From a virus (taxonomy: Duplodnaviria; Heunggongvirae; Uroviricota; Caudoviricetes): 11,292 nt of DNA. Of the stretch, positions 6,366 to 6,819 are shown piece by piece; position 1 is the stretch's first letter, and each line of letters opens with the position of its first letter. The DNA lies in the IMG/VR virus record IMGVR_UViG_2548876860_000007, one strand, 5' to 3'. The position numbers and the translations under genes were made by a program. The notes under the pieces were generated by a model, which worked only from the letters and a program-made list of their open reading frames with translations, searched no databases and was not told the DNA's origin.

Positions 6366-6393
6366 TTGCTGTAAAGCGAGAGTTAAGTAGAAT
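6366..6393 (+). promoter_or_regulatory. Candidate sigma70 promoter of the hok mRNA (TTGCTG -16- TAGAAT)
   Basis: -35 TTGCTG 6366-6371, -10 TAGAAT 6388-6393. The predicted start near 6400 puts the tac-like element (6398-6411) at the extreme 5' end of the transcript. Confidence 0.4.
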
Positions 6394-6568
6394 TGCTGCG
6401 GGTGCTTGAGGCTGTCTGCCTCGGGCATGCCACCGTAAGGCAGACAGAGAAAAGCCCCAGTTAACATTACGCGTCCTGCAAGACGCTTAACATTAATCTG
6501 AGGCCCAATCTATGCTTCACAAACGTAGGTTAGCCTCTTACGCGCCGAAAGGCAAGGAGAAGCAGGTT

Positions 6569-6724
6569 ATGAAGCAGCAAAAGGCGATGTTAATCGCCCT
6601 GATCGTCATCTGTTTAACCGTCATAGTGACGGCACTGGTAACGAGGAAAGACCTCTGCGAGGTACGAATCCGAACCGGCCAGACGGAGGTCGCTGTCTTC
6701 ACAGCTTACGAACCTGAGGAGTAA
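6569..6724 (+). CDS. hokD: Hok/Gef family type I toxin (51 aa), HokD (RelF)-like
   Basis: MKQQKAMLIALIVICLTVIVTALVTRKDLCEVRIRTGQTEVAVFTAYEPEE: single TM helix plus the conserved ...TRK.LCE..IR.G..EVA.F.AYE... Hok signature. As I recall it, near-identical to E. coli HokD. AAGGAGAAG SD at 6555-6563. An in-frame upstream ATG at 6512 with its own SD occupies the mok-like leader position. Confidence 0.85.
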   Translation: MKQQKAMLIALIVICLTVIVTALVTRKDLCEVRIRTGQTEVAVFTAYEPEE

Positions 6725-6793
6725 GAGACCAGGCGGGGGAGAAATCCCTCGCCACCGCTGATGTGTCAGGCATCCTCAACGCACCCGCACTTA

Positions 6794-6819
6794 ACCCGCT
6801 TCGGCGGGTTTTGTTTTTT
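6794..6819 (+). terminator. Rho-independent terminator at the hok mRNA 3' end
   Basis: Stem ACCCGC ttcg GCGGGT (6794-6809) followed by TTTGTTTTTT (6810-6819). Lies just downstream of the fbi-like element. Confidence 0.6.

Follow-up and report, generated by a model that had tools for sequence, protein, structure and literature searches.

The segment 6366-6819 of the window (the whole stretch of viral DNA analysed here, 11,292 nucleotides) carries a toxin gene of the Hok family. This raises the question whether the locus is truncated like hokD of E. coli K-12 or possesses all of its regulatory parts, including an antisense Sok gene for which the initial annotation could not place a promoter. 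Very probably the segment represents a complete hok/mok/sok type I toxin-antitoxin module, namely a HokD allele with its native regulatory region, situated in the nin-like region of a lambdoid prophage. The locus is already known and is an ordinary full copy of the established hok/sok module, with no departure from the family. All sequence elements of the module were identified in the window copy, and their conservation and covariation across related loci as well as two alternative folds were shown. The initial view of an intact toxin/antisense module in the prophage nin-like region is supported, and that this module is also functional is suggested by its intactness and by the homologues for which tests have been published.

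For comparison, a Hok peptide scan of one-genome-per-species contigs yielded 53 loci, which are distributed over Escherichia, Shigella, Kluyvera, Citrobacter, Pseudocitrobacter, Photorhabdus, Pantoea, Erwinia, and Kalamiella. A tblastn search of plasmids contributed further loci of the R1 type and from Vibrio and Aeromonas; blastn on plasmids did not reach the R1-type. The leader was anchored by the Rfam model RF01794 in approximately 50 related loci, and 43 sequences were aligned.

Toxin gene and mok reading frame

The coding part of the locus consists of two overlapping reading frames, each with its own Shine-Dalgarno sequence:

6569-6724, plus strand: hok coding sequence, 51 amino acids, MKQQKAMLIALIVICLTVIVTALVTRKDLCEVRIRTGQTEVAVFTAYEPEE, identical to K-12 HokD
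6555-6560, plus strand: hok Shine-Dalgarno sequence AAGGAG, 8 nt before the hok ATG, read from the sequence
6512-6724, plus strand: mok open reading frame, 70 amino acids, starting with the ATG at 6512, in frame with hok and ending at the hok stop codon
6500-6503, plus strand: mok Shine-Dalgarno sequence GAGG, read from the sequence; in the aligned loci, too, a GAGG precedes the mok start

The Hok-family reading frame with its strong Shine-Dalgarno sequence is located exactly where the initial annotation had drawn it, and its peptide matches Pfam HOK_GEF (PF01848) with E=3e-23 (81.6 bits, cutoff 22). Likewise, the in-frame upstream ATG with its own GAGG, which had been taken for a mok-like start, was confirmed as the beginning of a complete mok frame. 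This ATG is aligned in most of the 43 loci, and an in-frame mok is common to K-12 mokC. In a recent survey of Hok proteins, the HokD peptide is counted among the previously characterised Hok toxins, which serve as toxic controls, and the product of the window copy is presumably toxic as well.

A further motif is located within the hok coding sequence:

6707-6710, plus strand: TACG motif at Tyr47, probable TadA A-to-I editing site (Y47C)

The sequence TACGAA at this site is invariant in the 43 aligned loci and lies in a predicted 9-nt loop. For the hokD mRNA of K-12, editing from Tyr to Cys has been reported at approximately 6%.

Promoter, leader and terminator of hok

The elements that surround the reading frames are, in 5' to 3' order:

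6366-6393, plus strand: hok promoter with -35 TTGCTG (6366-6371), 16-nt spacer, and -10 TAGAAT (6388-6393)
6398-6819, plus strand: full-length hok mRNA, approximately 420 nt, with a presumed 5' end; the RF01794 match starts at 6400
6412-6447, plus strand: leader hairpin with a perfect 10-bp inverted repeat (6412-6421 / 6438-6447), part of the RF01794 consensus structure
6452-6458, plus strand: ucb or anti-Shine-Dalgarno box AAGCCCC, of which GCCC is invariant in the 43 loci
6515-6523, plus strand: loop of the predicted Sok-target hairpin, CUUCACAAA, following the mok AUG and complementary to the Sok 5' tail in the predicted fold
6534-6537, plus strand: dcb (CCUC), predicted to pair with the mok Shine-Dalgarno sequence in the truncated mRNA; the surrounding GCCTCTT is nearly invariant
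6793-6819, plus strand: intrinsic terminator with a 7-bp stem, a loop of 4, and a T-run; the stem was placed at 6793-6810 by a terminator scan

The hok promoter is present where it had been proposed. In nearly all of the approximately 50 related loci, a -10-like hexamer (TAGAAT, TATAAT, TACAAT, TAGTAT, or TATATT) is situated 4 nt ahead of the GCGGG/GGG start, and this spacing is held even where the remaining upstream DNA is unrelated. Due to this fixed distance, there is good support for the -10 as well as for the transcript start; support for the -35 is weak. The promoter is common to Sp5 hokW and K-12 hokC. Both the hok promoter and the Sok promoter are weak consensus matches, and neither was reported by a consensus promoter scan, because each has one hexamer with only 3/6 matches, which in case of hok is the -35. 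The sole site that the scan returned, TTAACA-18-TATGCT at 6487-6516 on the plus strand, was rejected, as it is approximately at shuffle level (0.3 +/- 0.5 expected) and lacks a counterpart in the hok model. At the other end of the transcript, the expected intrinsic terminator was recovered, with the T-run following its stem; it is also kept in K-12 Qin hokD. Upstream of the locus, a 34-amino-acid hydrophobic open reading frame (6221-6325, plus strand, MSDDISLVMEGALAVIAVVGVYCLVVFLMERLGN) with a strong Shine-Dalgarno sequence terminates 41 nt ahead of the hok -35; RefSeq lists it as hypothetical, and neither a Pfam nor a PHROG match was found for it.

The RF01794 match extends over model positions 1-157, i.e., the full length of the model, on the plus strand from 6400 to 6574, where it ends at the hok AUG, and scores 114.9 bits compared to a gathering score of 59. 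Although this model is named 'sok', it is sense to hok in the window as well as in K-12, where it matches the hokC/mokC strand (L003 602-754, minus) and the annotated sokC ncRNA is located at 653-711 on the plus strand. Due to this orientation, the match speaks for the hok leader and was rejected as proof of the antisense Sok gene. Except for RF01794 and tRNA, no Rfam family reached its gathering score in the window, and thus no separate hok-mRNA family was found. Of the comparison with Rfam hok and sok models that had been suggested initially, the leader match stands, but the antisense gene is not addressed by the 'sok' model. Matches of this model should consequently not be annotated as antitoxin RNA.

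Within the leader, the inverted repeat noticed initially is indeed perfect, and the hairpin that it forms is paired to 92% across the 43 loci, including 4 pairs in which both partners have changed. In eight close relatives, leader differences (window 6505-6524) cluster at the mok start and the Sok-target loop, and furthermore in the apical loop 6428-6438. Such clustering may limit cross-talk between co-resident Sok RNAs.

Pairing of tac and fbi and its conservation

Two further elements are located at the ends of the transcript:

6398-6411, plus strand: tac (translational activator), GCGGGUGCUUGAGG; its predicted partners are fbi in the full-length mRNA, ucb in the truncated mRNA, and 6418-6428 in the nascent fold
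6774-6788, plus strand: fbi (fold-back inhibition), CCUCAACGCACCCGC, which pairs with tac

The complementarity between the two ends, for which one bulge had been described, is exact and comprises 14 bp with C6780 bulged. Folding of the entire transcript (6398-6819), the test that had been recommended for this pairing, gave a minimum free energy structure of -180.7 kcal/mol (z=-7.12, 0 of 100 shuffles as good) in which all 14 tac/fbi pairs are included. The isolated duplex reaches -26.9 kcal/mol, compared to -16.2 +/- 2.0 kcal/mol for shuffled 3' flanks (0 of 200 as good).

To follow this pairing through the related loci, the 14 nt beginning 2 nt before the RF01794 start were searched, locus by locus, for their best duplex within the 160 nt after the hok stop codon. 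This duplex is located 45-56 nt past the hok stop in 40 of the 47 loci with a usable 3' flank, among them loci of Escherichia, Kluyvera, Photorhabdus, Erwinia, and Pantoea as well as of a Vibrio plasmid. For 18 of these 40 loci, none of 200 shuffled 3' flanks was as good. In case of nine others, five hokC-type Escherichia loci and four more, at least 10 shuffles were as good, and since the energy test is weak there, the position of the duplex is the main evidence. The seven loci outside the 45-56 nt range include K-12-type hokC, in which IS186 abuts the coding sequence, the frameshifted L055, L022, and L006.

Compensatory changes, matched on both sides of the pairing, were observed in several loci. 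GGGUGC/GCACCC is replaced by GGGCGC/GCGCCC, mainly in Photorhabdus, and GAGG/CCUC by GAGA/UCUC in Kluyvera and Photorhabdus; in the Vibrio plasmid, the pair is fully rewritten (GGGUGCUCUUGG/CCAACGAGCACCC). In the 43-sequence alignment, the tac/fbi register is paired in 86% of the cells, compared to at most 55% for slid registers, and the column pair 6/440 is occupied by UA in 27 loci and by CG in 13. Due to the fact that the position of the fbi bulge differs between clades, the alignment-based covariation is weakened, especially in the outer half, for which the search locus by locus was preferred over counting of alignment pairs.

Predicted refolding of the hok mRNA

According to fold predictions, the nascent 5' end (6398-6430) forms a hairpin of -20.2 kcal/mol in which tac is buried. 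In the full-length fold, tac is paired with fbi, and the mok Shine-Dalgarno sequence (6500-6503) is paired with ucb (6454-6458). When fbi is removed in silico, as in the folds of 6398-6773 and 6398-6760, tac (6400-6407) pairs with 6452-6458 and the mok Shine-Dalgarno sequence with dcb (6534-6537). These folds reproduce the tac/ucb plus mok-SD/dcb state that the R1 model assigns to the truncated mRNA (PMC9841398), and refolding of the window mRNA into this state after 3' truncation is a prediction of the folding model. In the fold of 6398-6779, from which approximately 40 nt are removed, an alternative 5'/3' pairing with 6764-6777 is still predicted, and thus the exact processing point matters.

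With the transcript ends and the processing as we infer them, the mRNA would pass through the following states. The weak promoter, with its -10 at 6388-6393, would give rise to a transcript of approximately 420 nt beginning near 6398, in which tac would self-fold with 6418-6428 as long as the RNA is nascent. In the finished transcript, tac (6398-6411) would pair with fbi (6774-6788), and ucb (6454-6458) would cover the mok Shine-Dalgarno sequence. Because the full-length fold hides this sequence under ucb, Mok and Hok are proposed not to be made and Sok to be unable to bind. Slow trimming from the 3' end would then remove the terminator and fbi, upon which tac would pair with ucb and the mok Shine-Dalgarno sequence would enter the Sok-target hairpin with dcb (6534-6537). 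In the trimmed mRNA, translation of mok would drive translation of hok.

Prophage context and probable role

Many E. coli genomes, including those of O157:H7 and O26 strains, contain a 100% identical counterpart of a 551-bp query spanning the locus, in which the gene is annotated as hokD. An identity of at least 99% is reached by 344 records, and some match was obtained in 4739 of 5426 genomes; the median number of such copies in an E. coli genome is 2, the maximum 10. The exact sequence of the locus is already contained in hundreds of sequenced E. coli genomes, and as a discovery it carries little weight, since the family with its mechanism, as well as its occurrence in lambdoid prophages, is established knowledge. 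An enrichment of hok in prophages was also reported in the recent Hok survey. In Erwinia sp. CGal63 (L058 250-397) and Kalamiella sp. (L060 362-389), hok loci adjoin CRISPR-DR4 repeats.

In the window, YdaS/YdaT-like genes, an O-like gene, a DnaC-like gene, and a DUF1627 gene are located upstream of the module, and DUF968, RusA, and Q genes downstream. This gene context is that of a lambdoid early-right operon. A search with the whole window revealed no complete E. coli genome that covers more than 79% of it, and the prophage is a mosaic. Just past Q, a 303-amino-acid protein is encoded on the minus strand (9595-10506), which matches the PADLOC candidate defence family PDC-S42 with E=3.3e-53 as well as phrog_3243, a family of unknown function. 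It is followed by two small co-oriented open reading frames (9346-9591 and 8959-9345, both minus strand) that match PHROG families of unknown function, and the three genes, flanked by Q and by tRNA genes, may constitute a defence moron. These tRNA genes, tRNA-Met (CAT) at 10739-10814 and tRNA-Arg (TCT) at 10895-10971, are both located on the plus strand downstream of Q; in a related O157 prophage (L001), tRNA-Ile, tRNA-Arg, and tRNA-Arg are found at their position.

By analogy with the 92%-identical hokW-sokW of prophage Sp5, the most likely role of the window copy would be to help with lysis and phage release after prophage induction. In the hokW-sokW study (PMC8621323), deletion of this locus halved phage release and changed lysis after mitomycin C. 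Since many E. coli copies are visibly decayed, such as K-12 hokC with IS186 beside it, a locus with a frameshifted Hok (L055), and the truncated K-12 hokD, it could be presumed that the window locus, too, is intact in sequence but physiologically silent, with Sok excess and fold-back inhibition keeping Hok permanently off and leaving no measurable role. This is unlikely, because all regulatory elements are intact and recur unchanged in many independent genomes, because purifying selection on the RNA structure is evident from the covariation, and because the deletion effects just mentioned were obtained with so close a relative.

Another alternative assigns the module mainly to phage exclusion by abortive infection or to prophage maintenance by post-segregational killing, and not to helping with the prophage's own lysis. 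The candidate defence gene of family PDC-S42, situated 3 kb downstream in the same prophage, would fit such a role. However, in the Hok survey hok was not enriched beside defence systems, and in the hokW-sokW study, the sole direct test of such a locus from a prophage, the effect on the phage's own release was positive, which makes exclusion or maintenance as the main role improbable.

The antisense Sok gene

On the minus strand, a promoter and an RNA were assigned to Sok:

6527-6555, minus strand: Sok promoter with -35 TTGCCT (6555-6550), 17-nt spacer, and -10 TAACCT (6532-6527)
6446-6520, minus strand: predicted Sok RNA, approximately 75 nt, with a 9-nt single-stranded 5' tail, a long hairpin, and a U-rich 3' end

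The promoter that had initially escaped placement was located by alignment to known sok genes, as the initial annotation had itself advised. Its 17-nt spacing is kept in all 43 aligned loci, in which the -35 reads TTGCCT, TTGACC, or TTGCGC and the -10 mostly TAAYCT or TATCCT. The first base of the hok Shine-Dalgarno sequence (6555) doubles as the last base of the complement of the Sok -35 (6550-6555). Both hexamers are identical between the window and sokW of Sp5. In the latter, the 'pro-less' primers YO-421/422 convert the sense-strand TAGGTTA into CCGGCTC, which is exactly the sokW -10, and in the resulting mutant the protection from HokW was lost and was partly rescued by sokW in trans (PMC8621323).

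The 5' end of the Sok RNA at 6520 and its 3' end near 6446 were mapped from the annotated sokC of K-12 through the alignment. A hairpin and a U-run terminator are predicted for it on the minus strand, and the predicted region covers the sokW Northern probe YO-592. Judging from these sequence features, an antisense Sok gene is predicted opposite the mok translation start. That the locus contains no Sok gene and hok is controlled by mRNA folding alone, as might be read from the consensus scan without a result on the minus strand and from the Rfam 'sok' match on the sense strand, is highly improbable in view of the -35, spacer, and -10 conserved in 43 of 43 loci, the identity of both hexamers to those of a functionally validated promoter, and the predicted minus-strand terminator.

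From the promoter at 6555-6527, Sok would be transcribed constitutively as an antisense RNA of approximately 75 nt from about 6520 to about 6446 and would pair with the mok start region, by which the processed mRNA would be blocked or destroyed. If the supply of Sok stopped, the stable mRNA pool would yield Hok, which would damage the inner membrane.

Two additional proposals are put forward, both of which we regard as rather doubtful. First, hok is co-directional with the early-right operon of the prophage (from the cro-like gene through Q) and Sok is opposed to it, and because of this opposition, antiterminated early read-through could shut the Sok promoter at induction by transcriptional interference. 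If true, the rapid, RecA-dependent disappearance of sokW RNA in Sp5 (PMC8621323) would be explained, and the module would act as a built-in lysis helper timed by induction. Second, divergence of Sok and its target could spare co-resident copies cross-regulation, in that differences in the Sok 5' tail and the target loop may keep up to 10 copies per genome apart. The exact coordinates of the Sok promoter and RNA in the window allele should be of use for studies of lysis timing in Stx-type and related prophages.

Comparison with known systems

In hok/sok of plasmid R1, the same elements occur as in the window, together with the same predicted switch (metastable 5' hairpin, tac/fbi and ucb/mok-SD, then tac/ucb and mok-SD/dcb), and Sok lies over the mok start, as predicted for the window. 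R1-type loci (L005, L006) match RF01794, as the window does. Nevertheless, R1 Hok is only approximately 40% identical to the window Hok, and mok, which shares the frame of hok in the window, is out of frame in the R1-type locus L009. Furthermore, R1 hok/sok is plasmid-borne and mediates post-segregational killing, whereas the window copy resides in a prophage.

The K-12 locus hokC/mokC/sokC (gef) shares with the window the in-frame mok and the same tac sequence. Its leader hairpin is 18 nt shorter than that of the window, and IS186 is situated right after its coding sequence, where no fbi pairing above chance was found.

The closest characterised relative is hokW-sokW of Sakai prophage 5 (Sp5, the Stx2 phage VT2-Sakai), a lambdoid prophage locus with the same architecture that is 92% identical over window positions 6358-6796. 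[quoted passage not shown] 2021, PMC8621323); activity of the window copy is to be expected by analogy. The two loci agree fully in the hok promoter, in tac and fbi, and in the -35 and -10 hexamers of the Sok promoter. Differences are given by the C-terminus of Hok (TAYEPEE in the window versus VDYESEK in HokW) and by several positions of the Sok 5' tail and the target loop. The homology of Sp5 to the window stops directly after fbi, at about 6789, and Sp5 thus lacks the terminator hairpin 6793-6810, which K-12 Qin keeps. Mosaic breakpoints therefore closely flank the hok module.

With hokD (relF) of the cryptic K-12 prophage Qin, the window shares an identical Hok peptide, and the hok Shine-Dalgarno sequence, coding sequence, 3' UTR, fbi, and terminator are nearly identical. 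In both prophages, a DUF968 protein (YdfU in K-12) and the antiterminator Q are encoded downstream. In Qin, however, relB-relE is located immediately upstream of hokD, whereas the window is not of the relBE type. The hok promoter, tac, ucb, the mok start, the Sok target, and the Sok promoter are all missing from the Qin locus and complete in the window. The statement that K-12 hokD lacks its native regulatory region thus holds: the homology begins approximately 13 nt before the hok ATG, after relE, and no RF01794 match was obtained for the Qin locus. An arrangement as in Qin, relB-relE followed by hok, was also observed on a Citrobacter IncFIB plasmid (L010 1-647), likewise with no RF01794 leader match. 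The label 'hokD' fits the peptide of the window but not the structure of the K-12 locus, and the window contains in complete form a locus of which only the truncated relBE-hokD is present in K-12.
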